A DNA stretch of 60,474 nt, filler included, from Rhizaria sp. SCN 62-66 (GCA_001724265.1; 8 parts of 8 records of this genome joined end to end with filler, not necessarily neighbours in it), one strand, 5' to 3'. Counted from the whole stretch's first letter, positions 2,483 to 59,958 are shown. Numbers and translations: made by a program. Notes: generated by a model not told the origin, from the letters alone.

Positions 2483-4561
2483 ATGAGCACCGCTGCCGTC
2501 AAGAGTGCCCAGACCACCTCGCAGTCTTCCGGCAAGCCCATCCTCAAGAAGTCCAAGCTGCGCCCGCCGCAGCCCTCGGCCGCAGCGCCCAGCAGCAGCA
2601 GCAACGCCAGTAACACGAGCGAAGACGATGACGACGACAACGGCGGCGTGTCGCTTTTCGCCTCTTCGATCAAGAAAAAGTTTGCCGGCGCCGCCAAGAA
2701 GCCCAAGGCCCCCGCCGCGGTCTTGTCGAGTCCCAACAGCGACGGCAGCTGCGCCGGCGATGGCGCCGGCGACGCGACCGCTACCGTTAGCCTTGACTCT
2801 GGCCCCGGCGCAGCTCTGACCGGCGGGCTGACTGTGCCGTGGACGCAGGCGCACCCGTACGACCCGCGCGCGACGTTCCGCTCCCTGGGCCTGTCTGTCT
2901 GGCAGGCCAAGGTGCTCTCGGCCATGTCCATCGTGACGCCCACCGAGATCCAGCAGCGCTGCATTCCGGCCGTGCTGGCGGGTCACGACGTTGTCGGCCG
3001 CGCGAAGACGGGCTCCGGCAAGACGGCTGCCTTCGCGCTGCCCATCCTCCACACGCTCGCCGCGGACCCCTACGGCATCTACGCGTTGGTGCTGACTCCC
3101 ACGCGCGAGCTCGCGTTCCAGATCGCAGACCAGTTCAACGTGCTGGGCAGTCCCCTGGGCGTCGACTGCGCGGTCGTCGTCGGAGGGCTCGGTACGCTAC
3201 ACAGGATATGCCTCCGCCATATCGCGCCTTCACAAAGAAATATTTTAAAACCAAGTACTACTTCATGATATCCAACTATATCTACTATTTTTAATTAATC
3301 AAGAGATGATCTTACACGATATGTTTATTTCTCATTCTGCTTATCTTCCGCTGCAGAGATCGCGGCCCAGTGCGCGCACCTGGAGCGGCGCCCGCACGTG
3401 GTGATCGCAACCCCGGGCCGGCTCGCACAGCTTGTCACGATGGGTTCGGTGCGTTTCCACGCGCAGCACCTGCAGTACCTCGTGCTGGACGAGGCGGAAC
3501 GCCTGTTCGAGCCCCAGTTCGTGGGGCCGCTGACCGAGATCCACGCGCTGCTGCCGCCGCCGGGACAGAGGCAGACGCTCATGTTTTCGGCTACGATCAC
3601 CGCAGCCATGCTCGAATGCAACCTCGGCTTTGCGGGCAACAACAACAAGCTCACGTCGACCGCCACGAGCTCCCAGAACAAGAACAAGAACAAGAAGTCA
3701 AGTCAAAAGGGTGGCGCCGCCGACGCTGACGCTGACGAGGCTGATGGTGATGATGACGATGATGATGAGAGCGCTTCGATGCAGCGACTGCCCCCGATGC
3801 TACACAACCCCGTCTTCGTGCAGGTGTCGACCGCAGACGACGCCATCGTGGCCACGCTGGACCAGCGCTACCTCTTCATGCCACAGTCCGTCAAGGACGT
3901 GTATCTGGCGCACCTGCTGCAGCGCATGAAGCCCGACCACGCGGCCTACTCGCCCGCGCGCTCCGTCATCGTCTTCACGTCCACATGCAAGGGCTGCGAA
4001 CTTGTCGCCGAAGTGCTCACGCAGCTCCAGATCCCCAACGCCGCGCTGCACTCGCGGATCAGCCAGACGCGCCGCATCGCGTCGCTGCGCAAGTTCCGCT
4101 CGGGCTCAGTGCGTGTGCTGGTGGCGACAGACGTGGCGTCGCGCGGTCTGGACATCCCGACCGTGGCGCAGGTGATCAACTTCGACGTGCCGCGCTCGCT
4201 GGAGGACTACATCCACCGCACTGGCCGCACGGCGCGCGCGGGCCGCGAGGGCCAGGCCGTGACGCTGGTGACTCAGTTCGACGTCGAGATCTTCGGCCAG
4301 ATCGAGGACCGCGTGGGGCGCAAGATGGAGCTGTTCCCCGACGCAGACGAGGACGACGTGCTTAAGCTGCTTAAGGACGTCACTGATGCGCGCAAGATTG
4401 CCAAGATCCGGCTGGAGGAGTACGATATCAACGCCAAGAAGTTCGGCGACGACGCCGTGGTGATTGACGAGAGGCAGGTTCGCAAGGAGGGCAAAGAACG
4501 GTTCCTGCGCGCCGGGATGGGCAAGGTCGGTGCGGGCAAGAAACGCATGCTTGCTATGTGA
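2483..4561 (+). CDS. DBP8: DEAD-box RNA helicase, DBP8/DDX49 type; exons 2483-3191 and 3357-4561
   Basis: Q motif (PTEIQ), AKTGSGKT, DPYGIYALVLTPTRELAFQIADQF, TPGR, DEAE, SAT, ATDVASRGLDIPTV, YIHRTGRTARAGR. The intron GTACGC...CTGCAG (3192-3356) restores GGLEIAAQCAHLERRPHVVIATPGR. Stop is TGA. Confidence 0.9.
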
Positions 4562-5465
4562 GCGCTGCCGTGTTGAGCGACGCGCTGAGCCATGTTTGCT
4601 ATGACATGATCAATAGATATGCAACGCGCAGTTGGTGTGCCTTGAACAGGTATCGTGGGACAGGATACCACGCAGAGATCGAATGCTGGTCAGATATATC
4701 ACAGATCAATACATAGAACTACACGTTTAAAACAACTATCTCTGTAGATTTGCAATTATAAGAAGACTGCCATGTGCTGATGCTGTTGGCGTGAACTGAC
4801 CACAAAACCAATGCTGAAGACATGCCGGCCTACTTTTCGGAAGTCGCTCGAAGTGAGTTAGGTGCGGCCGCAAAGCGATTTTGAGGAGTTCAAGGCGCGT
4901 TATCTAACCACAGACGAGGAAGCTGACTAGAAAACTGATTTTTATAATTCAGTGCCTATGCGCTCTTAAAACAACGCATGAAGTTTAGCTTGTTTCATAC
5001 CACTTTAGTTTCGAATGCGGAAACCTTCGCAGAGGCCGAGAATGGTCTCTCAACCGAACGTTAGGCAGCATGAAATCACCACCAAGGCGGACTTGATCAA
5101 GACAATGCATCTTGATTTGGTGTCAATGCGCTGCTGCCTAATGCAGATGCGTCGTCTTTATGCGTCCTGCTTCGGTATCATGTTCATCGGATGAGTCCAA
5201 AGGCTTCTCGGCTCGCGTTTGGCTCCAGTTCCTCAACCGTCCTCGCTCCGAATGCACGTTCAAGCAGACTCAAGCGCGAAACCGTTCTTAAACATCGTGA
5301 GATTCTGCACAATCACAACATATACCCGCGTTTTATTTGCTCTATCATGTCTTAGTCTCACTGTTCGCTTCCTCCCGCCTTGTCCACTCGTCTATTGGCC
5401 TTTCTCCCGTCTCCTCCCTCGTTCCTCAATGCCATCGCGACTCTCCCTCTTGCGCAGTCCCCGGG

Positions 5466-5612
5466 ATGATCTACGACTTCACCTCCGCCGCCTTTATGCG
5501 CTTCCTGCGCCAGTCTGGCAAGGCCCAGAAGCGCCGCCACGACGTTACCGACTCGGTCAAGGGCAACATCAAGATGCAGGGCTCCATGGGTGAGGACGGC
5601 CGCTCCGGCTAA
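5466..5612 (+). CDS. Candidate 48-aa small protein (MIYDFTSAAFMRFLRQSGKAQKRRHDVTDSVKGNIKMQGSMGEDGRSG)
   Basis: Strong C/G third-position bias like RPS15A. It is preceded by a pyrimidine-rich tract ending in GCAG, a possible acceptor, so it may be a terminal exon. Stop is TAA. Confidence 0.5.
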   Translation: MIYDFTSAAFMRFLRQSGKAQKRRHDVTDSVKGNIKMQGSMGEDGRSG

Positions 5613-6764: not shown

Positions 6765-6850
6765 GCGGTGTCAAGGGCGGCATGAAGGGCAAGGGACAGT
6801 TTGCCGTCGCGCCCCAGCTCCAGGCCCAGGGCCAGCTCGGCGGCTTCTAA
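6765..6850 (+). CDS. 3' end of a duplicated gene, copy A (...GVKGGMKGKGQFAVAPQLQAQGQLGGF*)
   Basis: Open, codon-biased frame from the contig start to TAA at 6848-6850. It is the exact reverse complement of 13347-13432. Confidence 0.65.
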
Positions 6851-7333: not shown

Positions 7334-9643
7334 TCACGCGTTGCCAATCTGCACCGTGCCCTGCTGCTGTGCAGACACGACGCCGCGGCGCCTGCGCTTA
7401 GCCGGCGCCTCTGCCGCGCTGCGGTCCGGCGGGGCCCATTGCAGACACGCCATGTCGACGCCCAACTCCGGCCCGCGTTGCCAGTGCTGCGCCAGCGTCT
7501 CGAGCTGCTTCGGCGTCGCAACGATCGCGTGCGTGCCGCGGTGGAAGCGGCTCAGGTTCAGGTCTTGTAAAGTGATGAGGGCGTCGTCGCTCGTGATGCC
7601 GGTTGCCTCGGACAGGGCCTTGAGGGACCAGCGCTGTGAACGCAGACGGGAAAACAACAACAATAAAAAAGAGTTGTTAGCATCGATCAATGATAAATTA
7701 GCAAACATATGCTTCAAGTTATTGAAAAAGAAATTGATTATGAACTGCCACTGGGTTTTAGCTGTGCGACGTACGTCAGGGGGCATGGCGGCGAGCGCGT
7801 TGACGAGCGTCTGCGACCAGAAGGAACGGTATGAAACCTTGCCCAGGTCAGAGAGCGGCTTCTCTGGACTGCCGGGGCGGCCCTCGAGGCGCGAGAGCGC
7901 GTACGAGAACGCGATCAAGAACTTGCCGTAGCCCTTGCGCTGGTGCTGCGGGAACGTGAGGATGCAGGCGAGGTTGTAGCCCTCGCTTGAGTCCTTTTCC
8001 TTGGAGAAAAAGCCCACGAGGTGGCACCCGTCGGCGTCCGTCTCAGTCAGCACGTAGAACATGAAGGGCGCGACGTCGAAAAAAAGCGTTTTGTGGTCGA
8101 TGTAGAGCTTGGCGAGCAGACACAGGCACTGGGCGTAGAGACGCTGCTCCGCACCGTCGATCTCGAACACCGAGATGTTGTCCTTACGGTAAATCTGCGC
8201 GTGTTGAAGCCAAAGCAACAAGAGTGAATAAAGTGTGATGATGTGCAAATGCAGTGAATAACTTGAGCGTCGACACAAGACTAAGATATGATATTCTGTT
8301 TCGCTCAGTCCGTGCTTTCAGCGTTGTTTCAAGTTATGATATTGCAAGTAAAGCTAGATAAAGTACGTACCTCGGTGCCCGGCGGGTGCCTGGGAGCGCA
8401 CGTGGCCGCGTGGCGGGCCAGCGTCTCCGGCTTCTTCATATACTTAAGGCACCACTCGCACACGTAGAGCTTAGGCAGGCCCGCAAACTCTGGTGGGTAC
8501 GGCGAGTAGTACCACGTGTCGACCTCCCAGGGCCCGATCTGCACGCAGTCGACTGTGCGCACCTTTGTCTGGTCCTCGCGGGCGCGCTCGAGCGCCGCGA
8601 CAACGGGGTCTGTCGGGTTCGCAGAGTCGTCTTGGACGAGCGCGCGGCGGTCGCGGCGAGTCGCCACGCGTGGGGTCGCCGGCTGTGAGAGACACATAGA
8701 AAAACAAAAACAAGAGGAAACCAATAAGAAGGTATGAGCAAGTGATGAGGTAAAGAAAAGTAGGACGGTACAAAGCAGAGAGCGGAAGTAAGTTATGTTC
8801 ATGATTTCACAAAGCACGCACCATAGCGCCTGCGCCGCCCGAGGCGCCCGCGTCGTCGCCCCACCCAGCGCCCGAGGCGCCGCTGCCTGCGACGGCGGTG
8901 CTCTGCCGCGACAGGTGGCCCGCGGCCAGCAGCGCCGCGCCGGGCGTGCCGGGCCCGTGCGAGGGCGAGTAAAGCATCTTCGGCGGTCCCTCAGCCTGCG
9001 CCGTCGCGTCGGTCGGAGCAAGGATGAGTTTGAACTCGAACTGGGACAGCCAGCGGTCCATGCGCCGGTTCGTGTCTTGGTAGTGCACGTAGTAGTCGAA
9101 TCCGCCATTCGCAGTCGCACTGGCAGTGCTGGCACTGCTGCTGCTGTCGGTCGCAGAGGCGGAGGCTGCGGGCGCGGCGGAAGGCGGCAGTGCGGGGGAC
9201 GAGGCGGCCGTCGTCGCAGCACCAGCAGCGGCGGCGGCGGCGGCGGTGGGGCCGAGCATAAGTGTGGCCGCGGCACCAGCGGCCGCTGCCATCGACGAGG
9301 ACGCGGACGCAGAAGCAGGGAGACCGGGGTAGGCTATGGAGCCAGCAGCAGCGGGTGTAGCCGCGGGGGACAGACGGAAGAAGCCCGCGCGCGCGCCGGT
9401 GGCGGGCGTGGGGGGCGGCATCATGTTGAAGCTGCTATTGGAGCTGGCGCCGCTGTTGACGACGATGGCGGCAACTGTGGGCGCAGTGAACTGGGCCGGG
9501 CGGCGCTCGATCACTTGTGCGAGCATCCATGTGCCGTTCTTGTGCAGGCCCCAGCCCTTGTCGCCGATGGCGAAGGCGCGCAGCGGCGCGCCAGACGCCG
9601 GGGCGGTCGTGGGGGAGGCCCCGAGTGCAATCGCAGGCTGCAT
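7334..9643 (-). CDS. ESA1: MYST histone acetyltransferase, Esa1/Tip60 type; exons 9643-8822, 8682-8371, 8194-7775, 7633-7334
   Basis: Chromo-barrel ([16 protein letters not shown]), C2HC zinc finger (WYYSPYP...[11 protein letters not shown]...HPPG), and MYST core ([58 protein letters not shown]). Three in-phase GT-AG introns. Stop is TGA. Confidence 0.93.
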
Positions 9644-11391: not shown

Positions 11392-12667
11392 ATGTCTGGT
11401 GTGTGTTTCTCACCCTTTCCGCGCAACGAGCTTGAGATTGTCGGGTTTAACCTGCGCCAACAGCTCAAGCGCCGGCAGCAAGAGGTCGAGAAGCAAACGG
11501 ACGGCATAATTTCCGATGCCAAAACCGTTAACGGCAGCGAGCCGTTGACTCTCCAGGTACGCTCATTTTTTTTTTTTAACTTTAATCTCTAGTGGTTATC
11601 TTAACACCTTTTAGTTTTGATTGGAAGCTATATTAAACCTCTATAGCGTAACAAACGGCTTCGGCCTCTTGTTTCTCAGTCGCTCTAGTGTGTCGCAGCA
11701 TTCCCACATCAAACTGCGTCTGGTCACTGGCCGCCCTGTTTGCGGACCAGCGTCGCCCCGTCCTATGGGGCCCACCCGCGCACTTCGGTGCACGGATCCA
11801 CGGCTTCCAGGACGGTTCAGCTGGAGTTATTCTGGCTGAATGGTGCAATACGCGAATATTCCCCCCCTGAACACACACACTCTCTTTTTATCTCATGTGA
11901 CTGTGCAGTCAGGAGCACAATGTCGTCCTCTCGCCCTCCCGCTACCACCAACTCACGCCTCGTCTCCTCGCATTCTTTATTTCTCCCTTGCTTGCTTGTG
12001 AACTGAAGGATGCGCGGACTGTGCTCGAAGCGCGTCTCAAGCGGCCTGTCTCAGACAAAGAGGCCCGCACCTGCTATGAGGTATGTCTCTCTCGCTCTCC
12101 CTTTGCTCTTGGCGCATTTCTCTCTCTTTAACGACAATGATGATTACTCACTTTCTAGGACACCATTGTAGCCGGTCTGAACGCCGCGATGAAAAAAACT
12201 ATGTGTATTACCTACTGATAACGTTAAAACTCTACAATTCTCTCAAACACAGTATCTCTTGTCTCTCGCACACCAAGCTCACCTTCACTCCATTTCCATT
12301 CCAATGCTATTTCTCGCTGTCACAGCGCTGCCTGAAGGCTTTCGACCCCCTCGCACACGCCCGGCTCGTCTCTGAGCAGCGCGCGCGGCTGGATGCGGCG
12401 CTCGACGCGGCGCGCGAGACTCTGCGGCAGCAGATTGCCGACGCCGCCGCGCGCGGTGCGCGGCTCACGGTCACGCGCAACTACTGCGGGCAGCTACTAG
12501 AGCCGCACCTGGGCCGGTTCCCCGACGCACCCGAGGTGGAGGAGCTGTGGACGCTGCAGTACATGTTCCCGCTCGCGACGTGGGAGGAGGGCGGCGAGTA
12601 CTCGCGTGACGCCAGGGACGCCGCCGCCGCAAACGCTTTCGGGCAGAGCGGAAACGACTGTCTCTGA
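11392..12667 (+). CDS. Hypothetical helical protein of about 192 aa; exons 11392-11556, 12009-12080, 12326-12667
   Basis: Three GC-rich segments join in phase 0 through GTACGC..AAG and GTATGT..CAG introns. Stop is TGA. No family recognised. Confidence 0.65.
11622..11876 (+). ncRNA. Candidate structured intronic RNA, family unknown
   Basis: GC-rich island inside a 452-nt intron. It has a closing helix TGGAAGC/GCTTCCA, two cUUCGg tetraloop hairpins and several more stems. Confidence 0.5.
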
Positions 12668-13346: not shown

Positions 13347-13432
13347 TTAGAAGCCGCCGAGCTGGCCCTGGGCCTGGAGCTGGGGCGCGACGGCAAACTG
13401 TCCCTTGCCCTTCATGCCGCCCTTGACACCGC
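13347..13432 (-). CDS. 3' end of a duplicated gene, copy B (inverted relative to 6765-6850)
   Basis: Exact reverse complement of copy A. Downstream similarity decays gradually. Confidence 0.65.
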
Positions 13433-13532
13433 NNNNNNNNNNNNNNNNNNNNNNNNNNNNNNNNNNNNNNNNNNNNTTAATTAATTAANNNNNNNNNNNN
13501 NNNNNNNNNNNNNNNNNNNNNNNNNNNNNNNN

Positions 13533-15874: not shown

Positions 15875-17469
15875 ATGGCTGCACCGCGCGGCACAGGACG
15901 CCTTGCGTTTGCGCTGGTTGCCCTTCTTGTGTCCTGCTTTGTCGCGGCCGCCGCAGCCGCAGCAGGCACTGCTCCCGCCGCTGGTGGCCACAACGAGACT
16001 GCCGACCTTCTTGAGCTCAGTACGTCTTTTCATCCATGTATCCTCCAAAATCTCACCATATCCTAGAAAAGTTAAGGTATAACGCACTTAAGTTTATTCA
16101 TAACCAATTCAACTTTGTTTTTATCTCCTGGACGAATTTATCTTTCGTTATCGCAGACCCGTGGTACGCGTACCGGAGCACGGCGGCCTTCTCCTTTCAC
16201 CTGGGCTACGAGGTCTCCGTCATGGTGACCTCGGACGGCAAGTACTTCTACGGCCGCGGCTGCTGCTACGGCGTCGAGTACGAGCTCCAGGTCTGGGGCA
16301 CTGGCCGCCACGGCACCGTCCTGGGCAAGCTCTACGGCACCGTGAACGCGCCGCCCATCGGGCTCGACAATGGCAAGGAGTCCGCACTGCTGTACCTCCC
16401 AAAGCGGAACAAGCTCGTTTACTGGAAGTGGAACTACCCCGAGTTCTACGTGGCCTCCGCGCGGCCGCGGCGCATCCGCGACGACGGCCGCCGCACGCTG
16501 CAGTGGGTCCCCTATAACAGCTACTCGTACGGGCTGCCGCTGGCTGACGGCGCGGCGTCTCTGTCAAACGACGAGGCGGACCTCCTCGTGTTCGACTACG
16601 CCACGCTCAAGCTGCACCGCGTTGACGGCGGCACGTTCCGCATCACGCAGACGACGCAGTTTGCGTCGTCGACGCACATCCTGCCGCCGTCGCCCAACGA
16701 GGACCTGCACACGTTCGCCTTTGACGGCCAGCACTACCTGTTCGGGGCCTTCCACTCGGGCCACTGCTACGGCATCTACTCGCTCGCGGGCGAGAACCTC
16801 GGCTCGCAGTGCGACAAGCTCGGCGGCTCCATGCTCTACTACAACTGGGCGCTGCACATGTTCGAGGCGTGCGGGACTGATTCGAGCGCGCCGCCGTCGT
16901 TCGAGACGTTCAACAACGACGCCGGCAACGGCGCGCACTGCACCTTTTGGACGACGCCGCGCACAAACAGTGCCGCCGCGGGGCTGCTGCCCGACTCGAG
17001 CCACCACAATGATCACAGCCAGCAGAACAACGGCGATAGTAACCGTAATAGCTACGGTGACGAGAGCGGCTATAACGCCGGGGACAATGGCGGCAACGGC
17101 TACGGTCAGGACAGCGACGGCGGCGACGCCAGTGGCAACAGCAACTTCGAGGGCCCGGTCTCGTGCGGCGCCGGCTACCCCAGCATCGCGGGCCGCTACA
17201 GTGACGACAACGGCAACGTGTGGACCATCGAGCAGGACCTGTGCGTGTTCTCGCTCGCGTACGACTACGTCGCCGGCCGCTCGCACCTCCGGCGCCTCCC
17301 CACGGGCACCGCGGGGACCGGTGGGAACGCGTGGGGCGCGGAGCAGGTGTACCTGGAGGTGGGGTCGAAGCAGGACCCCGCGTACCCAGGCTTCACCACA
17401 AGTCTGGCCGTCGTCGACGCGCACACAGTCAAGATGGGCGAGGACATCGTGCTCAGGCGCGTCGGTTGA
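15875..17469 (+). CDS. Secreted protein with a beta-rich (propeller-like) domain, an Asn/Gly/Asp linker and a small C-terminal domain; exons 15875-16019 and 16157-17469
   Basis: Signal peptide (RLAFALVALLVSCFVAAAAA). The phase-1 intron GTACGT..GCAG joins it to the 477-aa ORF. Strong codon bias. Stop is TGA. Confidence 0.8.
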
Positions 17470-17954: not shown

Positions 17955-18580
17955 ATGTCGTCCGTCGTCGCCGCTCCCCCGCCCGGCGCTCCCCAGGCCG
18001 GAGGCCCCCGCCGCCGCGGCCTTGCCGCTAAGGCCGCCCGCGAGGAAGAGTTTCTCTCCCAGTTCAACGTCATGAAGTGCGACATGCCTGACGAGGTACG
18101 TTGCCTTACACCACAGTCGAGCTCTTCTCACTGCCATCATCCAACGTGCTCACATTGTTATTTTAAACGACCTCTTGCCTTGATATGTCCCCTTTGCGCC
18201 TTGTTGCAGATGAAGCAGAAGGCACTGGACGCCACGAAGGAGGCCATGGATAACAAGACAACCGAGAAGGACATCGCCGCCTTCATCAAGCAGACGTTCG
18301 ACAAACTTGACGAGGGCGAGTCCACCTGGCACTGCATCGTTGGTACGCTTAATCTCACTCTCCGAACACCAAACTCACTATCACTATATTTTACTTTTAT
18401 CACCACGTAATATTCGAATGGGGACTTCATATGTTTCAACTTTACTCACTATCCGTCATCTCCTCTCCTTTGCTGATCGCAGGCAAGCACTTCGCTGTGT
18501 CCATCACTCACGCGGCCAAGTACCTCATCTTCTTCACTTGCCGCTCAGTCACCGTGCTTCTCTTCAAGTCTGAGGATTAA
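17955..18580 (+). CDS. Dynein light chain, LC8/DLC1 family; exons 17955-18095, 18210-18342, 18483-18580
   Basis: KCDMPDEMKQKALD...EKDIAAFIKQTFDK...TWHCIVGKHFAVSITHAAKYLIFF...VLLFKS. Stop is TAA. Confidence 0.93.
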
Positions 18581-26200: not shown

Positions 26201-26829
26201 ATTCCGCCGCGCAACCGCATCTTCCCGCGCGGCTTCCACCTTGGTGATCCGCTGACGCCATTCACTGATCTCGCGCAAGTCTCTGCCGTTGCAGCTACAC
26301 CAAGCATGTCTGTCATGTATGCTGTCGCCTCTGATGGACTGTACTTTGCCGCGCCCCGTGTGACCGTCTTGGCAACAACACCGACAGCTTATGTGTCTCC
26401 TCAGATCAACACACCTGTTGCTTGGAAGAAGCTCACGACCGTTAGCAGTGGTCGGGCATCACTTACCGTTGCGCCCGACGACACAACCGTCGTCATCAAC
26501 TCCAACAACAAGTTGTTGACAATCATTGAAACATCATACGACGACACGATTACTACAACCGATATTCCGTTGCCTTCAATGGACAAGCAACCACTTTTCC
26601 CGTTTACGGTCGCTAACCAAGCACCGCTTTTTGCTCCCATTATCCTCGGATGGCAAGCACGCAGCAGCTATACGGCGAGTACGCCCACAGCAACGGTAGT
26701 GCTTCCCGTGGGTAATGCTCTCTATGTTTTTAGCTTTACCTCAGAAGGACAATCCAAGCTTTTGCGCACTGAGTATCCTCTTGGCGAGACGAGCACGATT
26801 ACGGCCGTTGCATCCTCTCACTCTGCGCT
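20237..26829 (+). CDS. Very large Ser/Thr-rich, beta-strand-rich (surface-like) protein; internal fragment of about 2197 codons with one in-frame TAG at 23828-23830
   Basis: ORFs 20321-23830 and 23876-26881 share a frame. The whole contig is open in that frame apart from one TAG, and composition is similar on both sides. Confidence 0.8.
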
Positions 26830-40488: not shown

Positions 40489-42191
40489 TCAGCGCTTCTT
40501 TGGCGCCCCTTTGCCCCGCAACAACAAAGCCATAATGTCATCATCGTTCCCACCGCCGCCGCCGCCACCATCGCCGCCGCCGCCACCGCCGCCGCCACTG
40601 CCACTGCCATTCGCGGGAGCCGCGCCGGCGACAGAGCCAGCGCTTGCGCCACCGTTGGCGTTGTGGCTGACGCGAGCGTGGGCGCTCGCGCTGGAGTTGC
40701 TGTTGTTGCGGTTGTTCGCAATGATGGCGCTGAAATACGCGCTCGCGCCGGCATTCGCGTTCGCGCTGACGCCCGCGGTGCTGCCGCTGCCACCGCGGCC
40801 GTTGGTGACGGCGAGGGGGCCGCTGCTCAGACCGCTGAGGCCGGTACTTAGACCTGTGTAAGGGTGCGGCTGCGCGTTGCTTGCGCCTGTACTAACGGCG
40901 CCGGTCCCTGTGTGAGCGTTCAGTGTGGCGTTTGCATTGACGTTGCGAGAGTGAGTGTGCGCGCCGCTGGGGGGACGGGGACGGCGAGGCGGCAGCAGCT
41001 GCATCGGCGGCTGCGGCTGTGGCGGCTGTGGCTGCTGCGGCGGCGCGGGCATGGCTGCGACCGCTGCTGCTTCAGGGGAGGAGGCGACGCGACTGGCGCT
41101 CATACCCGGACCAACATCAGCAGAGCCCGCGTCTGCAGTAGCAGCAGCAGCAGCAGCAGCAGCAGCGGCGTTGCCGGTGGCGTTGGCGGTGGAGCGGCGG
41201 CCCAGTAGCGCCAGCCTCGGGTCCCGACTGCCCACGCCGACGCCGGCACTGCTCGCGCTCACACTGGGCCCGGAGGCAGCGGCAGAGACGGCAGCGGAGG
41301 CAGCAGTAGAGGCAGGGACAGACGTGTTTTGGCGCGAGCCGGAGCCCGGCCTAGCGGCAGCGTTTACAGAGACGTTGCTGATGCTGGCGTCGGCACCAAA
41401 GGGCGGCGCGGTGCTGGCGGTAATGGCGGCGCTATAGCCGGAGCCAGATCCGGGCCGGGGCCGGGCAAACGCCTGAGCTTGCTGCGGCTGCAGCTGCGGC
41501 TCTGAAGACTGTGCATGCGGTAGCGGCCGCGGACGCCCGTTGGCAGCTGCGGACCCGGCAGCAGAAGCACCGCTACTATGCGCAGTCGCAGCAGCTGCAG
41601 TAGAGGCAGCGGTGGCGGCGGCGACTGTGGCGGCGGACAAGACCCCCGCGGCCCTGAGTCGGGCCAGCAGCTCGGGGTCGCGCAAAGGTAAGCCGCCCGA
41701 GGAAGTTAGGCCGCCAGCACCGGCACCGCCACTAGTGGTACTCGTGGTATTGTTCGCAGCAGTAGCAGCAGCGCCCAAGAGTGTTGCTGAGGAGTGCGAG
41801 GAGGATGAGCGGCGGCCGGCGACTACTGAAGCGCTGCTGTTGCTGTTAGCAGCGGCGGCGGCAGCAACATTATTGCTCTTGCCTTTGTTCTTGCCCGTGC
41901 TTTTCACGAGCCCCAGCCCCGACAGCAGCAGCAGACCTAAGTCAGCACTCGAGTTGCCACGGATGATGCTGCCGCCGCTGCTATCGTAGAGTGCAAGCGC
42001 AGTCACCATATCGCCCATGCTCCAGCCCGGCAGCGCCGTCAACAGGCCGTCGACGTCGGCGGCACTCCCACTCCCTCCAACACCCGCGCCCGCGCTTGCG
42101 TCTGCGTCGCCGTTGAATGTCTGCGCGGCCGCAGAGACCGCCGCTGTCGCCGCAGTCTTCACAGCTGCCACAACATCCGCACTCGCACTGC

Positions 42192-42223
<32 letters not shown>

Positions 42224-45200
42224 TTTTTGTTGTCGGCGGTGTAAATGGCGGCCTCCAGCGCCCGCGCGGCGGCCACGCAAAGCGCCAGGTAGCGACTAAG
42301 TCCGCTGTCACCGTCGCCGTCACCGTCGGCAGAGTACATGAATGCGATACGAGAACCAGAGCTAGAGCCAGAGTCTGAGCCTGCATAAGCGCCAGAGGCA
42401 GCGGCAGTGACACGGCTGTCGGGCTGAGGGGCGAGGCTTGAGGTAGAGCTCGCGTAAGTGCTTCCGGGGACGTTGTAAGGGGCTGCCAACGCAGCCTCAC
42501 TCAGCACTTCCTCCTCGCCCCTTACCCCGGCCTTGCGGCTGCGAGCCGCGGGCCCCACATCGTGACTATTGGGGGGCAACGAGTTCCCCGCCTCGTTGCT
42601 ATGGAGCAGCGCATCGAGGTCGTAGTCAAGCAAGGCCCAGTCGTCGCTGCTCCGGCTGCCACTGAGGTCGCCGTTGCCGTCCGTGCCAGTGACCAGCGGA
42701 GCAGAGGCCCGCATCAGAGCGACGATCTCTGCAACACCGCTGAACACCCCTGCCTTCGCACTCGCACTGCCGCCGCCCACGCTGCCGCTGTCGCCGTAGC
42801 CGCCGCGACCAAGGCTGCGCGTGGCCAGCGCCGCCAGCGCGGCCGCGCGCGCCGCCGCGCCGCGGCGCCCGCCCGCGCCAGCTCCAGCGCGGCGGGCGGC
42901 GGAAGGCCGCGCGCTCGGTGGTGCGCCAGGAGAGCGCGCGCCGCCCGCGCCGCCACGGCCGAGCCGCCGAGCCCGCCGGCGCGCGCGCGCGAGCCGAGCG
43001 CGGCGGTGGAGGGCGCGGCGGGCGGCAGCAGGCGCAGGCCGGCGAGGGCGCCGAGACGCGCGAGCAGCGGCAGGAACCCCGCCATCGCCATCGCGAAGGG
43101 TTGGCGGGGCGGGGGGGCGTTGGGGGGCGGAGAAGCTAATGGACAGCTTAATGAAGCAAGTAAGTTGCTGGTGTTGTTTGAGTTATTGCTGCTGCTGCTG
43201 CTGCTGCTGTTGCTCGTTAATAGAGCTAGGAGACGTCCAGTTTGCTGGTCAACGTCACTTTCGCTATAGCACTGCTGCTGCGACAGGGTTTGCACAGATG
43301 TTGCTGATGCTGCTGTTGTTGTTGTTGGCGGCAGCAGCGAGCTGTACGCCACTGTCGGGGCGCTGCTGCCGTCGCGCCGAGCAACCACAGCGGCGGCATT
43401 CGCAAAGCGAGTACTGTTTTTCGCCCCATGTGCCGCTGTTGCAGCCCCAGGCCCAGGCCCAGTCCCGGCCTCAGCCTCAGAGTCGAACTCAAAGTCCAGC
43501 TCTTGCTCAAGCTCGAGCTCTAGCTCGGAGCCGGGGACCCAGAACCGGGCCCAGTCGCCGTCGCGAAAGCGTTCACAGTCACTCAGACACGGCTGCTCAC
43601 GGTCACTCGGAGCCCCGCCACTCGCTTTGCTCTTACGTTTGCCATCTTTGCCCTTGCCTATGCTCTGGGACTGAGTGATCGCGTGGCCGACGCTGAAATG
43701 GTTGTCGGTGCTGCCAGGGCCGCCGCCGCTGCAGCCGGTCGCGACCACCCACCCCGAGCCCAGCGACTGTGAGCCCTGTGCCCGTGAGCCGTACATCAGC
43801 GACTGCGACAGCGAGACGCCAGTACCGCCCCCACTGCTGCTGCTGCTGCTGCTGCTGCTAGTGCTATTGGAATTCACAACATTGCCGAGCGACTCTGCAC
43901 TGGCGGGCTGCGGCAGGCGCCACCACGGCCCCCACAGAGGCGGGGCCGGGTCACGGGCGAGCGCACTCACTGCTGCGGATACAGCAGCGGCAGCAGCGGC
44001 AGTCGCGGCGGAAACGCTGCTGCTCTTGCCTGTTGGAGCAGCAGCAGTCGCTGTTGCTGGCGTCGACGCCGGTTGCCTCGCCCGCCCCAACAGCCGCCCT
44101 TGCCCCTGCCCTTGCTGCTGCTGCTGTTGCAGTTGCTGTGCCTTGCCGCTCGTAGCCGTTTTTGCAGCAGGTCTCGCGCCGCTGGCAGTCGCCGTCGCCG
44201 TCGCGAGCGCCGCCACCGCGGCCACCGCCGCGGCCGCGCGCGCGGCCCACCGCCGCGCCCCCAGCGCCTGCGCGGGCCACAGCAACAGCGCCGGGGCCAG
44301 GACGCGAGACTGCGACTGCCAGGGCGACTGCGGCTGCAACTGCGATTTAGCAGTGATAGCTGTCGTAGAGTGAGCGCGTCCAACGGCGAACAGCAGCTGC
44401 GCGTAGGCCGCCGCCAGCGCTGGCCGCGACAGCTCACGCAGCCCCGGTCCAGCTCCAGCGCCAGTCACGCTTACGCTGGCGCCCGCGCCCGCGCCCGCGC
44501 CCGCGCTGTTGAGGTCGCCGGTGGCGGTGCGGCGCGCGGCGAGCGCGGCGGTGAGCCGAGCCCTGTCGCCGACACTGATGCCGGTGCCGGCAAGCCCCAG
44601 CTCCACGAGCCTGGCTGCAGCGTCTGCAACGACGCTGTGGCCGCCGCCGCTGCCGCTGCCACCGGGGTTCGAGAGCGCGAGCAGCAGCAGCAGCAGCCGG
44701 GGCGCGGCGGCGGCGGCGCGCGGCGACAGCGGGCAGTCGTCGAGCGAAAGCACACGCAGGCGGGAAAGTAAGCCGCAGGCGCGGGAAGTCAAGCCGCCGC
44801 GTTGCAGTCCCTGCTGTTGTCCTTGTTGCTGGTGATACAGATTCAAGCCAAGCGCAGAGGCGATGAGTTTCACGGCTTTGACCGAGCGGATGCCGGTGTC
44901 GTCGAGCAGCAGACGGCGCAGCGCCAGCGGCGGCGACTGATAGAGCGATTGCGATTGCGGGCAGGAGCAGGCTGACTGAGACCGCGACTGCGGCGGCTGT
45001 GGCTCCAAGAGCGACTGCGGGTACTGCGAATGCAAGCGAGGCTGTGCCTTAGAGCTCTTCAGCGCACTACCTTGTTGGCCAACACTGCTCGAGCCAGCTG
45101 GCTGGGAGCCAGCGTGCTGGCACTTGCACGTGCGCCTGGGGTACTTAGCCACAGATCTAAGTAGCCACGCAAGCCCCCGACCTCGCAGACCCGGATTCTC

Positions 45201-49381: not shown

Positions 49382-50438
49382 ATGGCAAGCGCGAACCCTC
49401 TGGACCACATGATCATCAAGTACCTCCAGTCGCAGGGCTACTTTTCGACCGCGCGCATCTTCCGCCGCGACGCCTCGTCCGGCAAGGACGACGTGGAGAC
49501 CTCGCACTCGCTCAAGGAGATGTACGACGACTACCAGGACTCCCCCGCCGCCGCCGACGCCGCGTTTGCAGTGATGCAGGCGAACGCCCCCAAGGACCTC
49601 GAGCTGGGCGCCCTGCGCGGCGGCGGCAAGGCGGCCACCGACGGCAGCAGCAGCGCGACCCTTCTGCGCGGCGCCGCGTCCGTGATTGACTCTTCTGAGT
49701 GCCCGCGTACCTTCATGGGCAACCTCCCGTTCAAGATCACTGAGGAGTTGCTGGCCGAGGCCTTCGCCGACTGCGGCCCGATCGAGAGCGTGCAGTGGAT
49801 CACCGACAAGGAGACGGGCAACTTTTACGGCACCGCATTCGTGGTGTTTGAGACGCTCGAGGGCGCCAAGGCCGCCGTCGCCGCCACGGGCCGCGAGATT
49901 CTGCAGCGCAAGCTCAAGATCAACTTCGCGCCGATGAAGGAAAAGCGCGCCGAGGCCGGCGAGAAGCGTGCGATGCCGCCCGCGCCCAAGCTGCACGACA
50001 AGCCCGAGGGCTGCCGCACGCTCTTCATTGGCAACCTTGGCTTCACGATTAGCGAGGACATGGTCCGTAACTTCTTCAGCGGCTGCGGCGAGGTCTACCA
50101 GGTACGACAATTACAACAAATACGCAGATATATCACTTTTAACGGAGGTAAAATTATTGTTTTCAAATATATTGCGTTGTTAGATATATGTCCTGCCAAA
50201 TTCACTTTAATTGGAACTGGTTATGAAAATCGAATGTCTTGTTTAAGAACGCCGCTCACTCTTTACTCACATTGTTTGTTTGTTCGTTCTTCTATAGGTT
50301 CGCTTCCAGAAGCGTGAGAGCGGCGAGTTCAAGGGCTGCGGCTTCATCGAGTTCCAGGATGAGTACGCCATTGCCAACGCCATCAAGCTCCACGCCAAGC
50401 CCCTCAACGGCCGTCCCGTGCGTCTTGACTTTGCGTAA
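49382..50438 (+). CDS. LisH-like motif plus two RRM domains (nucleolin/Nsr1-like RRMs); exons 49382-50101 and 50298-50438
   Basis: LDHMIIKYLQSQGYFSTARIFRRD; RRM1 (TFMGNLPF...FYGTAFVVF); RRM2 (LFIGNLGF...FKGCGFIEF...LNGRPVRLDFA). Intron GTACGA..ATAG. Stop is TAA. Confidence 0.88.
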
Positions 50439-50873: not shown

Positions 50874-52663
50874 TCAGAAGTTGACCCTGCGCGTCTTCCA
50901 CCGCAGCAGCGTGGGCAGATCCTTATTCACGACGTCCATATACACGCCCATGCCAACGTTGCCACGCGCAACGCCCAGGTGAATGCGGGTCTGATCGACC
51001 AGCTTCTGGTCATTGAGCCCGCGCGCGATCTGGTACGCCTTCTCAAAGTACGCCACTGCGCGCTCGTGATCGCCCGCGTTGGCGGCGTTGAGACCCAACA
51101 GTGTGCACGCCTCGGCTTGCTGTCGTGGTTGCTGGTTGCGCGCAGAGAGCTCATTGCACCACGCCAGGTGCTTCCCAGCCTGCTCACGATCCCCCAGCGC
51201 CGTGTAAGCCTCGGCGATGCCCGAGTACGCCGCGGCCTCGGCCAGCTGGTCGTGCGTCTGCTTCGCAATCTCCAGATACCGCAGCTGCCACTTAAGCGCC
51301 TGCGCAGTGTCGCCGACTTTAGCGCACGCGACGCCGAGCTTGTGTGTGATTACGCCCTCGACCTTGGCGTCCCCGGAGTCAAACGCCGACTTGAGGCACT
51401 TGTGGTACAGCTCCACGGCGGCCGCGGCGTCCCCGCGCGCCATGGTCGCGTCGGCGTGGCGCTGCCCCACGTCGCACAGCTGCTTGTTGGCGTAAACGAC
51501 GCGTTCGTCGTCGTTCATCTGCAGCGCCAGCGCGAGGTGGCGCTCGTGGAAGCGGATCGCAAGCGGCAGGTCGCCCAGCGCGTCGTGCGTCACGCCCAGG
51601 TTGTTGTTCGCGATGCTCTGCTGTGCGAGATTGCCCGTACTCTCGCTTAAATCGAGGCACTTCTCGTAGAAGTACACGGAGGTCTTGTAGTCGCCACGCT
51701 CCTGGAAGTAGCTCGCGAGGCGCTCGTAGGACTCCAGTACGCGGTTCGAGTCCGCGCGGCGGTGTGCGCGCTCAGCCGAGCACAGGTTCGCCTGGACCTG
51801 GGGCAGGTGGGCCTCGGGGATCTCAGCACGGGTCGTGTCCTGTCAAGTGCAGAGAAAAGTGTTAAATGTGAGATTTGACGAGGTATACAACACAGCCGCA
51901 AGCTAACAATACATTATATAGTGATTACAACATTAAATCATATTATTCCAGAAAATAGCAACGAAAAGAAGTGAAATAAACCTTTAAAACCTTGTTGTGT
52001 AGAAGTAGCTTGGCGTACCTGGTCAGTGCGGTGAGTCAGGTAGAAAAAGTCAACGAACGAGTTGACATAGCCCTTGCACAGGGTGTCAATGCAAATGCCG
52101 TGCTTAGTAGACGCAGAGGTCGTGATACCGCCCGCCATCGTGGAATTATTGGCTCCGGTCGTGGTGAAAGGCATCTGATGTTGCTGACCGCCGGCACCAC
52201 CGCTGTTGTTATTGTTGTTGTTGAGAGAGAAAGGGGACGTGTTGGCGGTGCTCGCCTTGAAGTCGGGGTGGAGGATGTTGAGTCCCGTGGGGATCCCGCC
52301 GCCATTCTCGTCGTCATCGTGGCGGCTGCTGTGGCCACGCTTGCTCTGCTTGCTTGAGCCAGCTGCCTTGTTCGCATTGCCGCCGCTAGCGTTCACAGTC
52401 GTGTTGCTGCTGTTGCTGGAGCGGAGCGCGGAGCTCATCCAGGCCGTGTTGGGCGCAACTACCTGGCCGCTCTGCGCACCCGCAGCAGAGGGGCCGAGCG
52501 CGGCGGCGCGGGCGCCCGTGCGCGGGGCCATCCGCGCTGCGCCGCCACTGCTAGAGATGGAGCTGCTCGAGCTGGGGTGCGATCCTGCGTTTGCATGCGC
52601 GCCCGGCCGGCCCGCGGAGGGAGCGGAGGGCGCGTACTTGTCTGGGCGCGGGGCAAAAGACAT
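50874..52663 (-). CDS. TTC29: TPR protein, TTC29-like (flagellar); exons 52663-52019 and 51839-50874
   Basis: CIDTLCKGYVNSFVDFFYLTHR, tandem TPRs, and a C-terminal LLRWK motif. Phase-0 intron GTACGC..ACAG. Stop is TGA. Confidence 0.75.
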
Positions 52664-57447: not shown

Positions 57448-59958
57448 ATGGCGACCGTGGCGGCTTGTCCCTCGCGCGCCGCGTCCCCCACGCCGGCCTA
57501 CCTTGCTGGCGCCGAGCTGCTTGCCCCGCGCTACGTCTCGTACGCGGGCCCCGACGCGCGCGGCCGCTGGGTCCTGCTGATCGTCTTCGCTTTCTTCGCA
57601 TACTCCTACGTGGCTTACTTGCTCACCTCTAAGGTCGACCGCGTCATCTCAGCCGACATCGTCACGGCGCCCGCGCAGCTCCCCGTGCTCGCCGCCGCGC
57701 TGCGCGCCTCGCTCTTCGCGCTGCCGCTGCGCGTCGCTGTCGTTTCCTCCGCCGACGCCCCCGTCTCCCCCACCGTCGCCGACTCAGTCTTCGCCCGCAT
57801 CTCAACCGCCGCCGCGCGCGCCGCTGCGGCTGTCACTGGCGCACCCGCGTCCTCGGCCCGCGTGGTCTCCTTTGCGCCCACTTTGACCGCGCTGACTGTC
57901 GCGCCCGCGCTCCTGACTGAGCTCGCGACCGTAACCTCCGCCGCCGCCGCCGCCGCTGTTGCGGCGACCGCGAAGCCCGCCGCCGCCGCTGCCGCCACCG
58001 CGGTCGCCGACGCCGCGCTCTCTGCACTCCTCGCAGTATACGACAACAACAACGCCGCCAGCGCTCCGAGTGACGAGATCACGGTAGTTATTGTGGACTC
58101 TGCAGCGTTCAAGCCCGCCGCATCATCCGAGGCGGCGAATGCATCGAAGGCAACGAAGGACTCTGCAGCAGTGTGGACGATGGGTCCTGGCACCAAGGCC
58201 TGGGCCACGATGCCTCTTTTGCGCTCCGACGCCGCCACTGACGCCGCGGCCGACGCGGTGGCGTCCCTGCTCGCTGCCGCTCTGCTGCCCTACGCCGCAG
58301 CCATCTCCGCCTCCTCGTCCGCCGCCAACACCGACTCTGCCGCCGCCGCTGCCGCCGCGCTGCCCCCCAGTGCGTTCGGGCTTCCGGGCCTTGCCTGGAC
58401 GCAGTACGCGGCCCTGCGCTCGGCGCTGCCGCCGCGGCGCGCGCTCGCGCTCACGGTCGCGCTCGCGCACGCAGTGCCCGCCGACCCTGCTGACTCAGCA
58501 GGGGACGGCGGGGTTATTCGGGTGAAGTGTGCGAAGAGTGGCGGCAACGGCGATCAGTGTGTGGAGCAGCGTGCGCGGCTTGTGCCCTGCTCACAGTCAC
58601 CGAGCGGGTGCCCGCGGTCGCTCTCCGCGGCGCGCGACATCATGCCTTTGCTCTCGCCGCTGCTCGCCGCTCTCAACGCAGACGTTAACTCCCAGTTTCA
58701 GTCGCAGTCACATTCAGCGGACGACGCAGTCGCTGGCGCCGCCATTGGCGCCGCCGGCGTCGCAGTGACTCTGAGCGCGGTCACGACGCACGCGGTGCCG
58801 CTGCTGCCCGCGGCTCGCGCGCTCACTGCCATACACGGCAAAAGCAACGGCAACGGCAGCGGAAACGGAAACGGCAACGGCAACAACGGCATCGCTGTGT
58901 CTGTGTCGGAGGCGGTGTTGCTGTCAGCCGTCACGAAGGGCAAGAGCCTCTGGGACAGCCCTTCCGTCACCACAACCACCACGACGTTCGCCACCAGCAA
59001 CAACGATGATCACGTGGTTGACGAAGACACGGAGCAGGGCTCGCTCACCATCCTCGCCGTCGCGCCCCCTGCGGCCGCGGTGACCGTGGGCGGCCAGAGC
59101 GCTACCAATGACCGTGAGCGCCCTGCGACTGTGGGCTGGGGTGTCGTTGACGCCCACGGTCACCCGCTGCCACCGCTGCTGCTGCTGCCGCGCTGGGGCG
59201 CCGCTCTCTTGCTCAACAGCAACAGCAACGCCGAAAACAACGCCAGCAGTGTGGGCAGCGGTGAGCGCAGCGGCGACAGCGGCCTGCATCCTGCGTCCGA
59301 CGCGGTGGCCTCGGCCGCGGCCGCCGCGCTGCGCCTGGCCCTCGGGCTGCCCCCCGCCGTGCCGCGCGCCCCGCTCTCCCTCCCCATCCCCTAGCCCGAA
59401 CACCCTCGCTCTCGCGCCGCTGACGTCAAGAGCGCTGACAGTGCCGTCGCCGTCGCGTCGCCGCAGCATGCCGTGTTCGCCCCGTCGAGCGCGGGCGTCT
59501 GCGGCTGGGAGTTGCTACTCTGGCGCCGCCTGCGCGCCTGGGACGCGCTGTCCGCGGCCACCGCGGCGCTCGTGTCCACCGCCGAGCTGCTGGCCAAGGC
59601 GCCGCACATGCCGTTCCCGAGGGGGCAGGCCGCGCGCGCGGGCCGGGCGCTGGCGCTGCTGCGCGAGGCCCAGGCGCACCTCCAGTCTAAGGGAGGCTCT
59701 ATGAGTGTAAGTGCCGGTGTGTCTGCGCCGTCGAGCGCGGCCGCGACGGCCGCTGCGTCGGCGCTGCTGCGCGCGAGCAGTGCTGCGCGCGCGGCGCTGT
59801 TTGACGCGGGCATGGTGCCGCTGCTCTATTTCCCCGACGAGCACGCGTACGCGGTCTACGCGCCGCTGTTCGCGCCCATCATCGTGCCTGTGCTCGCCGC
59901 GCTCTTCAAGCTTGCCAAGGCCGCCGTCGCCAAACGCAAGGCTGTCAAGCAGGCGTGA
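57448..59958 (+). CDS. PIGS: GPI transamidase subunit PIG-S/Gpi17 with an in-frame TAG at 59392-59394
   Basis: N-terminal TM followed by TSKVDR, then LLPRWG and LRLALGL. After the TAG, in the same frame: GWEL...LVSTAELL and ALFDAGMVPLLYFPDEHAYAVYAPLFAPIIVPVL, the PIG-S C-terminal signature and TM. Stop is TGA. Confidence 0.88.

Follow-up and report, generated by a model that had tools for sequence, protein, structure and literature searches.

The nuclear genes of an uncultured single-celled eukaryote from wastewater appear to be written in a new version of the genetic code, one where UAG serves as a sense codon for glutamate and UAA and UGA are the stops. That UAG is a sense codon we consider highly probable; the complete reading, a variant nuclear code with UAG as a rare glutamate codon and two remaining stops, has in our estimate a probability of about 0.75, as judged from sequence comparison. 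A first-pass annotation of a stretch of this genome had suggested that UAG has lost its terminating role and become a rare sense codon, and this suggestion is supported by a census of 0.92 Mb of the genome, by a tRNA(CUA), by a TAG in the eRF1 gene that persists in a spliced contig, and by substitutions in the motifs of eRF1.

Gene ends and in-frame TAG codons in the window

In the window, by which we mean the whole 60,474-nucleotide stretch of DNA that was analysed, the first-pass annotation had counted 13 gene ends, seven in TGA, six in TAA and none in TAG, with TAG appearing only internally, at two places. All 13 ends were recovered with the codons assigned to them, both internal TAGs (the one in PIG-S at 59392 and the one at 23828 within a frame of 2,197 codons) are real, and two further ends, at 40491 and 29654 on the minus strand, also use TGA:

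4559..4561, + strand: TGA end of a DEAD-box helicase, DBP8-like (stop census, Pfam)
5610..5612, + strand: TAA end of a putative short ORF from 5466 (stop census)
6848..6850, + strand: TAA end, duplicated 3' end, copy 1 (census, duplicate comparison)
7334..7336, - strand: TGA end of a MYST acetyltransferase (census, Pfam)
12665..12667, + strand: TGA end of the 11392 gene (census)
13347..13349, - strand: TAA end, duplicated 3' end, copy 2 (census, duplicate comparison)
17467..17469, + strand: TGA end of the 15875 gene (census)
18578..18580, + strand: TAA end of a dynein light chain (census, Pfam)
28397..28399, + strand: TAA end of an armadillo-repeat, importin-like gene (census, Pfam)
29652..29654, - strand: TGA end of an extra ORF (census; Pfam scan without match)
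40489..40491, - strand: TGA end of an ORF overlapping the LRR ORF, an alternative end of the LRR gene (census)
42714..42716, - strand: TGA end of the LRR ORF (census, Pfam)
50436..50438, + strand: TAA end of an RRM gene (census, Pfam)
50874..50876, - strand: TGA end of a TPR gene, TTC29-like (census, Pfam)
59956..59958, + strand: TGA end of PIG-S (census, Pfam-validated ends)

Pfam matches (DEAD/Helicase_C, MOZ_SAS, Arm, TPR, RRM, LRR_6, Dynein_light and PIG-S) stand behind several of the gene labels proposed earlier, whereas the 11392 gene, the 15875 gene and the segments with the duplicated 3' ends gave no Pfam match. The two ends described as duplicates indeed share 99 identical bases before they diverge; they represent one sequence, so the window holds 12 independent ends. 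The lack of TAG among these 12 has p = 0.14, 0.07 and 0.03 at a TAG share of 15, 20 and 25%, respectively, and because of these values the window evidence is only suggestive, which agrees with the original assessment of the sample as supportive only.

The two internal TAGs lie in the following frames:

57448..59958, + strand: PIG-S gene, a single open frame if TAG is read through, with a TGA end (Pfam)
59392..59394, + strand: TAG in frame, located in a variable PIG-S loop (open frame, Pfam)
20237..26829, + strand: open frame of 2,197 codons that fills its whole contig and contains one TAG (open-frame scan)
23828..23830, + strand: in-frame TAG flanked by coding signal upstream and downstream (Markov coding posterior)

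The Pfam match of PIG-S spans its TAG (profile positions 321-512, E 1e-30), and the conserved C-terminal part, which matches human PIG-S, is encoded 3' of it. The 100 bases that precede this TAG are 85% GC, as against 37-52% GC in verified introns, and a search for a phase-0 donor resembling the verified donors found none. At 23828, the Markov coding posterior is 1.0 upstream and 0.99 downstream of the TAG, which is followed by 999 open codons; the 200 codons around it are without a Pfam match.

TAG across the genome sample

In 0.92 Mb of the same genome (2.6% of the 34.9-Mb assembly), in-frame coding signal continues past 18 of 32 TAGs, 1 of 59 TAAs and 0 of 64 TGAs (Fisher p 2e-16, clear classes). 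The search for conserved genes ending in TAG, a check proposed in the first-pass annotation, covered 134 segments and produced 31 Pfam-validated ends, 20 of them TAA, 11 TGA and none TAG; furthermore, no clear TAG-terminated gene was seen among about 93 clean ends. The codon is rarer than every standard sense codon, accounting for 44 of 156,050 codons (about 0.03%; ATA, 59 of 156,050).

In-frame UAG is present in conserved genes, namely those for eRF1, UBE2J1, SUV3, five kinases and PIG-S. Among 19 cases flagged as TAG inside a match (11 kinase, 3 Helicase_C, 3 dynein, 1 DEAD, 1 eRF1), 12 turned out to be intron acceptors or intronic and were discarded, and seven were kept; the 53 matches to dynein heavy chains contain no truly internal TAG. 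When 36 segments flanking candidate TAGs were scanned against Pfam (34 of the 70 candidates, with PIG-S in two extended forms), credible domains came to light only in UBE2J1, SUV3 and PIG-S. Standard gene callers fragment genes of this genome. In public sequence entries, SUV3 appears as two pieces divided at the TAG.

A tRNA with the CUA anticodon

One intact tRNA(CUA) was found among 26 pattern matches; it scores 58 bits with a covariance model, with all stems paired in a full cloverleaf, and minimum free energy folding (z -1.5) yields just two of the stems, acceptor and anticodon. The pattern is absent from the viral contigs. No UUA tRNA was detected with the UUA/UUC pattern, which a gene with an intron or a long variable arm would escape and which gave two matches, one of them tRNA-Glu(UUC). 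The tRNA(CUA) is identical to tRNA-Glu(CUC) at 47 of 73 positions (64%), to tRNA-Glu(UUC) at 40 of 74, to tRNA-Asp at 39 of 73 and to tRNA-Gln at 33 of 73 and 29 of 74; its acceptor pairs 1-5 are common to both Glu tRNAs and its T stem to Glu(CUC). When compared with published determinant sets (PMC9976931), it has U35, A37, U11-A24 and U13-G22:A46 and lacks nucleotide 47, all Glu determinants in a bacterium, E. coli, and has two of the five strong Asp determinants, lacking G34, C36 and C38. On sequence grounds, then, it is a descendant of tRNA-Glu(CUC). ARAGORN labels it 'Pyl', presumably from the anticodon; we rejected a pyrrolysine tRNA, given U1-A72 in place of the G1-C72 of tRNA-Pyl and the ordinary Glu-like body.

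Release factor eRF1 and the stage of reassignment

The genome search found no second eRF1 gene, and the sole copy found carries an in-frame TAG that aligns to human Glu107, in a column with E 106, D 10 and V 1 among 117 homologues. This TAG is unaltered in contigs from other studies (X5, spliced over intron 1; X7, from a polyA library; X3, from DNA); a relative in run X4 has GAG at the site (one contig, depth 4.9, 31 bases from the contig end) and the relative P0004 has Val. Furthermore, the protein departs from invariant or nearly invariant columns of 115 homologues by T32S, M34V, G57S, T58K, L124M and K130Q, and retains E55, S70, NIKS, YxCxxxF and L69. T32, invariant in 115 of 115 homologues, is the residue in contact with the G of UAG, and T32S together with the other substitutions may constitute a candidate loss of UAG recognition. 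T58K is present also in ciliates with the standard code. A search of the eRF1 literature returned nothing on T58K or T32S; T32A is described there as lethal in yeast, and Iotanema, which has a UAG-only code, has its eRF1 altered at this same residue (PMC5304391), to T32G as against T32S here.

The mechanism that we propose would start with a C36-to-A change in a tRNA-Glu, giving a tRNA(CUA) that would be charged by GluRS and would read UAG alone, as wobble of CUA to UAA is not possible. T32S would loosen the contact of eRF1 with the G of UAG such that the tRNA outcompetes the factor, and poor decoding of UAG, one tRNA gene having been found, would keep the codon rare and largely within regions under weak constraint. 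Such rarity and placement are expected soon after codon capture, and UAG at about 0.03% of codons thus resembles an early stage of that process.

An ambiguous intermediate, in which eRF1 and the suppressor tRNA would each act on UAG part of the time, is an unlikely alternative, although it would accommodate the rarity of TAG (44 against 59 for ATA), its absence from the dynein heavy chain matches, the single tRNA gene found and the motifs that eRF1 still has (E55, S70, NIKS, YxCxxxF). A TGA or TAA follows two of the TAGs after 3 and 25 codons, and each of these TAGs could be internal or terminal, which also suits a shared codon; however, TAG accounts for none of the 31 validated ends and for no clear case among the clean ones. 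The UAG in the eRF1 message might, under such sharing, serve as negative feedback, and the RF2 frameshift in bacteria is a loose parallel for self-regulation of this kind; yet the essential, single-copy eRF1 gene tolerates this TAG, relatives do not keep it, and a 441-codon gene has a chance of about 12% of containing one TAG at the overall rate. Certain UAGs may still bring about some residual termination.

The amino acid inserted at UAG

Orthologue-level columns at four TAG sites comprise one that is E-modal (eRF1), two that are D-modal and one that is variable; the column of UBE2J1 holds D 71, H 19, S 13 and E 7 (n=119) and that of SUV3 holds D 90, E 11, S 11 and Q 7 (n=145). The summed log-odds are 7.3 for D and 4.6 for E, and both Q and S trail E by 9-11 bits; the homologue columns point to an acidic residue and are a poor fit for Gln, Leu, Ser or Tyr. 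Pfam bits, summed over seven TAG positions (E 574.1, K 572.7, Q 572.2, D 571.0, S 569.2, L 561.7), place E ahead of K and Q by less than 2 bits and L 12.4 bits below E. A test of neighbour context at 40 sites (H 1.9, Q -9.0, E -11.8, D -28.5) chose no residue clearly; in its control, GAG samples were called E in 95 of 100 cases. The columns of a CaMK-like kinase (variable in solved structures, Tyr and Lys), a ubiquitin-like protein (Ala) and a NEK kinase (variable) were rejected as residue evidence. The residue is probably acidic and most likely Glu, which we prefer over Asp because the tRNA(CUA) is Glu-derived, though the columns score Asp slightly higher.

Aspartate, or a mixture of Glu and Asp, would result if the Glu-derived tRNA(CUA), with its G73, were charged by AspRS, which seems to us improbable. 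G73 is an Asp determinant, but it is also present in tRNA-Glu(UUC); the tRNA(CUA) has Glu-type acceptor pairs at 3 and 5 and is missing three of the five strong Asp determinants. The orthologue columns put D above E by 2.5-2.8 bits, and Asp-modal columns hold 3 of 31 Glu residues versus 18 of 28 Asp residues in the same alignments, whereas the three kinase columns put E above D by 1.6 bits and Asp ranks near the bottom in the context test. Close paralogues of the kinase L159 carry Asp at the TAG position; against this, the relative in run X4 has GAG in eRF1, and TAG to GAY takes two changes but TAG to GAG one. A stop-to-Asp code was not found in the literature. A combined scenario, an early stage with Asp or Asp/Glu decoding, continued competition by eRF1 at UAG and adjustment of eRF1 levels through the UAG in the eRF1 message, also strikes us as improbable. 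The blastn search for close paralogues returned low-complexity noise in most of the matches listed.

Glutamine, the meaning of UAG in Iotanema and some phyllopharyngean ciliates and the commonest outcome in eukaryotes (PMC11687900), is very improbable here. About six of the 40 TAG sites fall within glutamine-rich runs, and L059 contains an internal repeat where TAG is paired with CAG; CAG-to-TAG is the most accessible mutation, so TAGs in polyglutamine are expected under any sense meaning. The Pfam sum for Q is 1.9 bits under that for E, but in the orthologue columns, four in number, Q makes up 0/117, 0/119, 7/145 and 1/18 of the residues and falls about 11 bits short of E, and the tRNA(CUA), apart from its low identity to tRNA-Gln, ends in U1-A72/G73 as against G1-C72/U73. 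More generally, Leu, Gln or Ser, after the manner of exLh, Iotanema or Scotinosphaera, was rejected on account of the poor fit to the columns and the Glu-type tRNA.

The standard code, under which intron ends, pseudogenes or assembly errors would account for the TAGs and chance or stop bias for the missing TAG ends, is extremely improbable despite the 12 of 19 flagged TAGs associated with introns and the 65-69% of point mutations to a stop that yield TAG in this codon usage: 23 of 24 internal stops are TAG (p about 0.001 even so), three other studies have contigs with the identical eRF1 TAG, a spliced contig among them, the search for a second eRF1 gave none, and the cognate tRNA and T32S would be left unexplained.

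Comparison with known codes

Nuclear codes that separate UAG from UAA are few, and the published ones that we found assign Leu, Gln or Ser to UAG or reassign UAA too. UAG-only codes include those of the rhizarian exLh (Leu) and Iotanema spirale (Gln) (Panek et al., 2017, PMC5304391) and, according to McGowan et al. (2024, PMC11687900), those of phyllopharyngean ciliates (Leu, Gln), Protocruzia tuzeti (Gln) and Scotinosphaera (Ser). In these, as here, UAG is sense with UAA and UGA as terminators, and two ciliate MAGs likewise have a cognate tRNA(CUA); unlike their Leu, Gln or Ser, the residue here is probably acidic and the tRNA of Glu descent, with UAG extremely rare and present in eRF1 itself. 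The eRF1 of exLh is changed at L69, whereas L69 is kept here and the sequence differs from that of exLh (Fig. S2).

Glutamate is the meaning of UAG in Oligohymenophorea sp. PL0344, where UAA is Lys (McGowan et al., 2023, PMC10553269). There, too, the tRNA(CUA) is closest to tRNA-Glu (69-93%, versus 64% here), but UGA is the sole stop, whereas UAA is a main stop here and no UUA tRNA was found, and 10 tRNA(CUA) genes and >10,000 Pfam-aligned UAGs contrast with one gene and a very rare codon. In the UAR=Glu codes of peritrich ciliates and Blastocrithidia (PMC12153298, PMC10553269), UAG is read, as proposed here, by a tRNA-Glu with a CUA anticodon, and such a tRNA is therefore workable; however, UAA is also Glu in these organisms (dual in Blastocrithidia, where UGA is Trp), as opposed to the plain UAA and UGA stops here, and the Blastocrithidia change is tied to AT pressure whereas the present coding sequence is GC-rich. 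Both the PL0344 and the UAR=Glu code were rejected for this genome, TAA being coding in 1 of 59 cases and a UUA tRNA not having been found. In context-dependent codes (Condylostoma, karyorelicts, UAA of Blastocrithidia), a codon that terminates at gene ends is read as sense within genes; here, no clear TAG end was seen, and the two TAGs close ahead of a TGA or TAA may be of either kind.

UAG=Glu with UAA still terminating was not found in the literature. If true, a UAG-only acidic code would represent a further independent origin, accompanied by a candidate tRNA and by an eRF1 change at the residue reading the G of UAG. An eRF1 that is blind to UAG yet reads UAA and UGA would serve amber-codon engineering in eukaryotic cells.

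The host organism

The host is a GC-rich, probably non-ciliate protist; the polyubiquitin junction test for Rhizaria gave only two chance matches, out of frame. It recurs in wastewater and bioreactor datasets, and since codon capture appears to be at an early stage, with UAG so rare, the question of capture versus ambiguous intermediate becomes testable in this organism. Metagenomes were scanned for eRF1 with T58K; apart from three sequences that are unrelated, the scan recovered this organism itself (L185, which is probably not independent of X3). The relative P0004 shares T58K and keeps T32.

Gene ends and internal TAG codons in the window

The eight contigs of the window are all eukaryotic, and genes on opposite sides of the N-padded linkers that join them are not genomic neighbours. 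The features that matter here are the following.

Window 6665-6764, 13433-13532, 20137-20236, 26830-26929, 35772-35871, 47770-47869, 54139-54238: linkers, N-padded
Window 6765-6900 and 13300-13432: inverted copies of one 3' gene end at the two ends of one contig; 99 identical bases, then diverging UTRs
Window 13533-14012: candidate ribosomal protein S15a-like gene, identified by eye
Window 29038-29110: tRNA-Asp(GUC)
Window 31086-35771: long Sushi-repeat protein
Window 42714-47003 and 40489-43182, minus strand: LRR ORF and the next ORF, overlapping by 470 bases in different frames

The first-pass annotation listed 13 gene ends, none of them TAG, and their positions and codons (7 TGA, 6 TAA) proved accurate; two further ends are both TGA. 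Because the duplicated 3' ends share 99 identical bases, there are 12 independent ends. If the TAG share were 25-15%, finding none among them would have p = 0.03-0.14. The duplicated end, for which a Pfam scan gave no match, probably reflects the collapse of two paralogues at either end of the contig. The LRR ORF and its neighbour both end in TGA, and their overlap might reflect an intron, a frameshift or an assembly slip.

Both internal TAGs noted in that annotation are real. The one at 59392 lies inside the span of a Pfam PIG-S match, and the portion matching human PIG-S is downstream of it. An intron ending at this TAG appears unlikely, given that the region is 85% GC, compared with 37-52% in verified introns, and that there is no phase-0 donor resembling the verified ones.

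Stop codons across the genome

The assembly spans 34.9 Mb in 714 contigs. We sampled 922,657 bases, made up of the window, 600 kb from four contigs and the search loci, and scored a stop when a Markov model called the preceding 35 codons coding. We set aside any stop that had a donor-like site immediately before it. Of the remaining stops, 18 of 32 TAG, 1 of 59 TAA and 0 of 64 TGA led into further in-frame coding sequence; 4 TAG, 44 TAA and 49 TGA led into non-coding sequence, and 10, 14 and 15, respectively, were unclassified. Without the donor filter, the in-frame counts are 23/44, 1/84 and 0/87. Random point errors in this codon usage favour TAG (65-69%), and even given this bias, 23 TAGs among 24 internal stops have p of about 0.001. 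By eye, the four "terminal" TAGs comprise one that is intronic, one that is probably non-coding and two that closely precede a TAA or TGA.

L107:5334-5621, minus strand: TAG 3 codons before TGA
L090:9614: TAG 25 codons before TAA

These near-end TAGs are candidates for dual meaning.

As the first-pass annotation had anticipated, conserved gene ends in the sample lack TAG: among 134 segments whose stop does not lead into coding sequence (57 TAA, 63 TGA, 14 TAG), the 31 Pfam-matched ends are 20 TAA, 11 TGA and no TAG (p = 0.001 at a 20% share, 0.04 at 10%). TAG is very rare, with 44 occurrences in 156,050 confident codons (ATA 59, GAA 850, GAG 5,469). We regard the use of UAG as a sense codon as a real feature of this organism, and consider this reading very likely.

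The eRF1 gene

A search with eRF1 domain 1 gave three matches: two fall in exons of a gene that looks pelota-like by eye, and the third is the only eRF1 gene found (L031). The eRF1 gene ends in TAA and carries an in-frame TAG as codon 111 of 441, aligned to human E107 in a column where 106 of 117 homologues have E, 10 have D and one has V. In a comparison of the locus with four public sequencing runs, the TAG was unchanged in three: X5 (a contig with intron 1 spliced out), X7 (a contig from a polyA library) and X3 (a DNA contig). It is therefore not an assembly error, and it is neither edited nor spliced out. X3 is possibly from the same campaign as the assembly; the studies behind X5 and X7 are separate and later. 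The fourth run, X4, contains a relative with GAG at this codon, on a single contig of depth 4.9 and 31 bases from the contig end, which may be an error; another relative, the library protein P0004 (84% identical eRF1), has Val.

The protein carries T32S, M34V, G57S, T58K, L124M and K130Q (human numbering) in columns where 115 homologues show little or no variation, and retains E55, S70, L69, NIKS and YxCxxxF. According to Panek et al. (PMC5304391), Thr32 forms a bond with the G of UAG, and Iotanema has T32G; in their Fig. S2, read from the PDF, Thr32 is present in 26 of 26 standard-code taxa. T58K occurs in five standard-code ciliates in the same figure and is, on that evidence, not diagnostic. 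The rhizarian exLh eRF1 differs from that of this organism. Other loci that bear T58K include the following.

L188:639-1352, minus strand: unrelated metagenomic eRF1, with an in-frame TGA just past the RVNR motif region (pseudogene, error or another recoding)
L186:7935-8633: divergent eRF1 on an intronless 403-kb contig that by eye looks like a giant virus

A tRNA with the CUA anticodon

Among 26 matches to a CUA-anticodon pattern, ARAGORN accepted one (L036), which scores 58 bits and has every stem paired. A T run follows it, and the other genes on its 86-kb contig (C84) are ordinary; a DNA search of the genome found no second copy. A search by UUA/UUC anticodon pattern recovered tRNA-Glu(UUC) and no UUA tRNA. 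Among the recovered tRNAs, an incomplete set in which 63 of 506 candidates were scored, the nearest is tRNA-Glu(CUC) at 47/73 (Glu(UUC) 40/74, Asp 39/73, Gln 33/73 and 29/74). The Glu and Asp tRNAs of this genome are themselves alike at 51-52/73, which makes overall identity a soft guide. Individual positions give a clearer picture: at acceptor pairs 3 and 5 the CUA tRNA agrees with both Glu tRNAs and differs from Asp, and it shares its T stem, base 26 and D-loop length with Glu(CUC). Measured against the lists in PMC9976931, the tRNA has 5 of 7 major E. coli Glu determinants, which may not be those of a eukaryotic GluRS, and 2 of 5 Asp determinants.

Which residue does UAG encode?

Nineteen TAGs were flagged within domain matches; 12 were dropped as intron acceptors or intronic, and seven stand (eRF1, SUV3 and five kinases), with an eighth, in UBE2J1, coming from a separate coding scan. 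In the public protein library, SUV3 of this organism appears as two proteins (P0244, P0293) divided at the TAG. Pfam bits summed over seven of the eight sites, with kinase L157 omitted as its site falls in a gapped region, rank nine trial residues as E 574.1, K 572.7, Q 572.2, D 571.0, S 569.2, A 567.5, Y 564.5, L 561.7 and W 560.5. The orthologue columns read D 71, H 19, S 13, E 7, Q 0 for UBE2J1 (119 homologues), D 90, S 11, E 11, Q 7 for SUV3 (145) and T 4, E 3, I 3, L 3 for a NEK kinase (18). Log-odds summed over these three columns and the eRF1 column (D 7.3, E 4.6, H -1.6, S -4.3, Q -6.7, K -7.8) imply that the residue is acidic, as judged from these alignments.

Taken alone, the orthologue columns lean towards Asp over Glu, and at kinase L159 two paralogues carry Asp at the TAG site; three kinase sites favour E over D by 1.6 bits. 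We nevertheless choose Glu, with a probability of about 0.75 against the rivals Asp, Gln and a leaky intermediate, since the tRNA is Glu-derived and is without three of four anticodon-loop Asp determinants, GAG is one change from TAG and CUC one from CUA, a relative has GAG, and tRNA-Glu(CUA) has precedents in Blastocrithidia and PL0344 (PMC12153298, PMC10553269). Gln would find a counterpart in a 48% GC (lower) ORF that is probably virus-derived, and it ranks far below both acidic residues in the summed log-odds.

L059:1-2142 (contig C681): ORF that contains an internal repeat plus one ubiquitin and one Peptidase_S74 domain; two in-frame TAGs are the only stops within it, one of them opposite CAG in the repeat

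The contexts of 40 TAG sites point to no one residue: the sites lie variously in acidic tracts, runs of glutamine and other low-complexity stretches, the mixture expected if CAG, GAG and other codons mutate to TAG in single steps at weakly constrained positions. The leaky intermediate might suit the near-end TAGs and sits less easily with the lack of TAG at the 31 conserved ends.

In the literature searched, where subscription journals are thinly covered and an unseen report is possible, we found no code that retains UAA as a stop and reads UAG as Glu or Asp. UAG alone is reassigned in Scotinosphaera (Ser) and Protocruzia tuzeti (Gln), as described in PMC11687900.

A possible route to reassignment

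The observed basis of any scenario is the TAG distribution, tRNA(CUA) and the eRF1 substitutions. UAG would have dropped from use as a stop, and a copy of tRNA-Glu(CUC) would have acquired the CUA anticodon, which cannot wobble to UAA, leaving UAA as a stop (an argument made in PMC11687900). T32S in eRF1 would weaken UAG reading, and inefficient decoding may maintain the rarity of UAG. P0004 keeps T32 and shares T58K, and this one sequence hints that T32S was the later step. Feedback through the UAG in the message for eRF1 itself, by analogy with RF2, is possible and has little in its favour, since a gene of this length would have a TAG by chance with a probability of about 12% at the overall rate and the relatives are without this TAG.

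Lineage and habitat

For one NEK kinase the best named relatives are from Plasmodiophora brassicae (2 of the top 4 matches), with Spongospora lower, which suggests Rhizaria from matches rather than a tree; the eRF1 and UBE2J1 matches are uninformative on lineage. The GC-rich exons, introns of 130-290 bases and contigs of >200 kb would speak against a ciliate macronucleus. Six runs contain at least half of the eRF1 sequence words, and the five labelled ones among them are bioreactor or wastewater metagenomes.

L060:1501-5945 (contig C706): 18S rRNA gene, 4.4 kb, with four group I introns

The first insertion in this gene, of about 1 kb, might carry an ORF.
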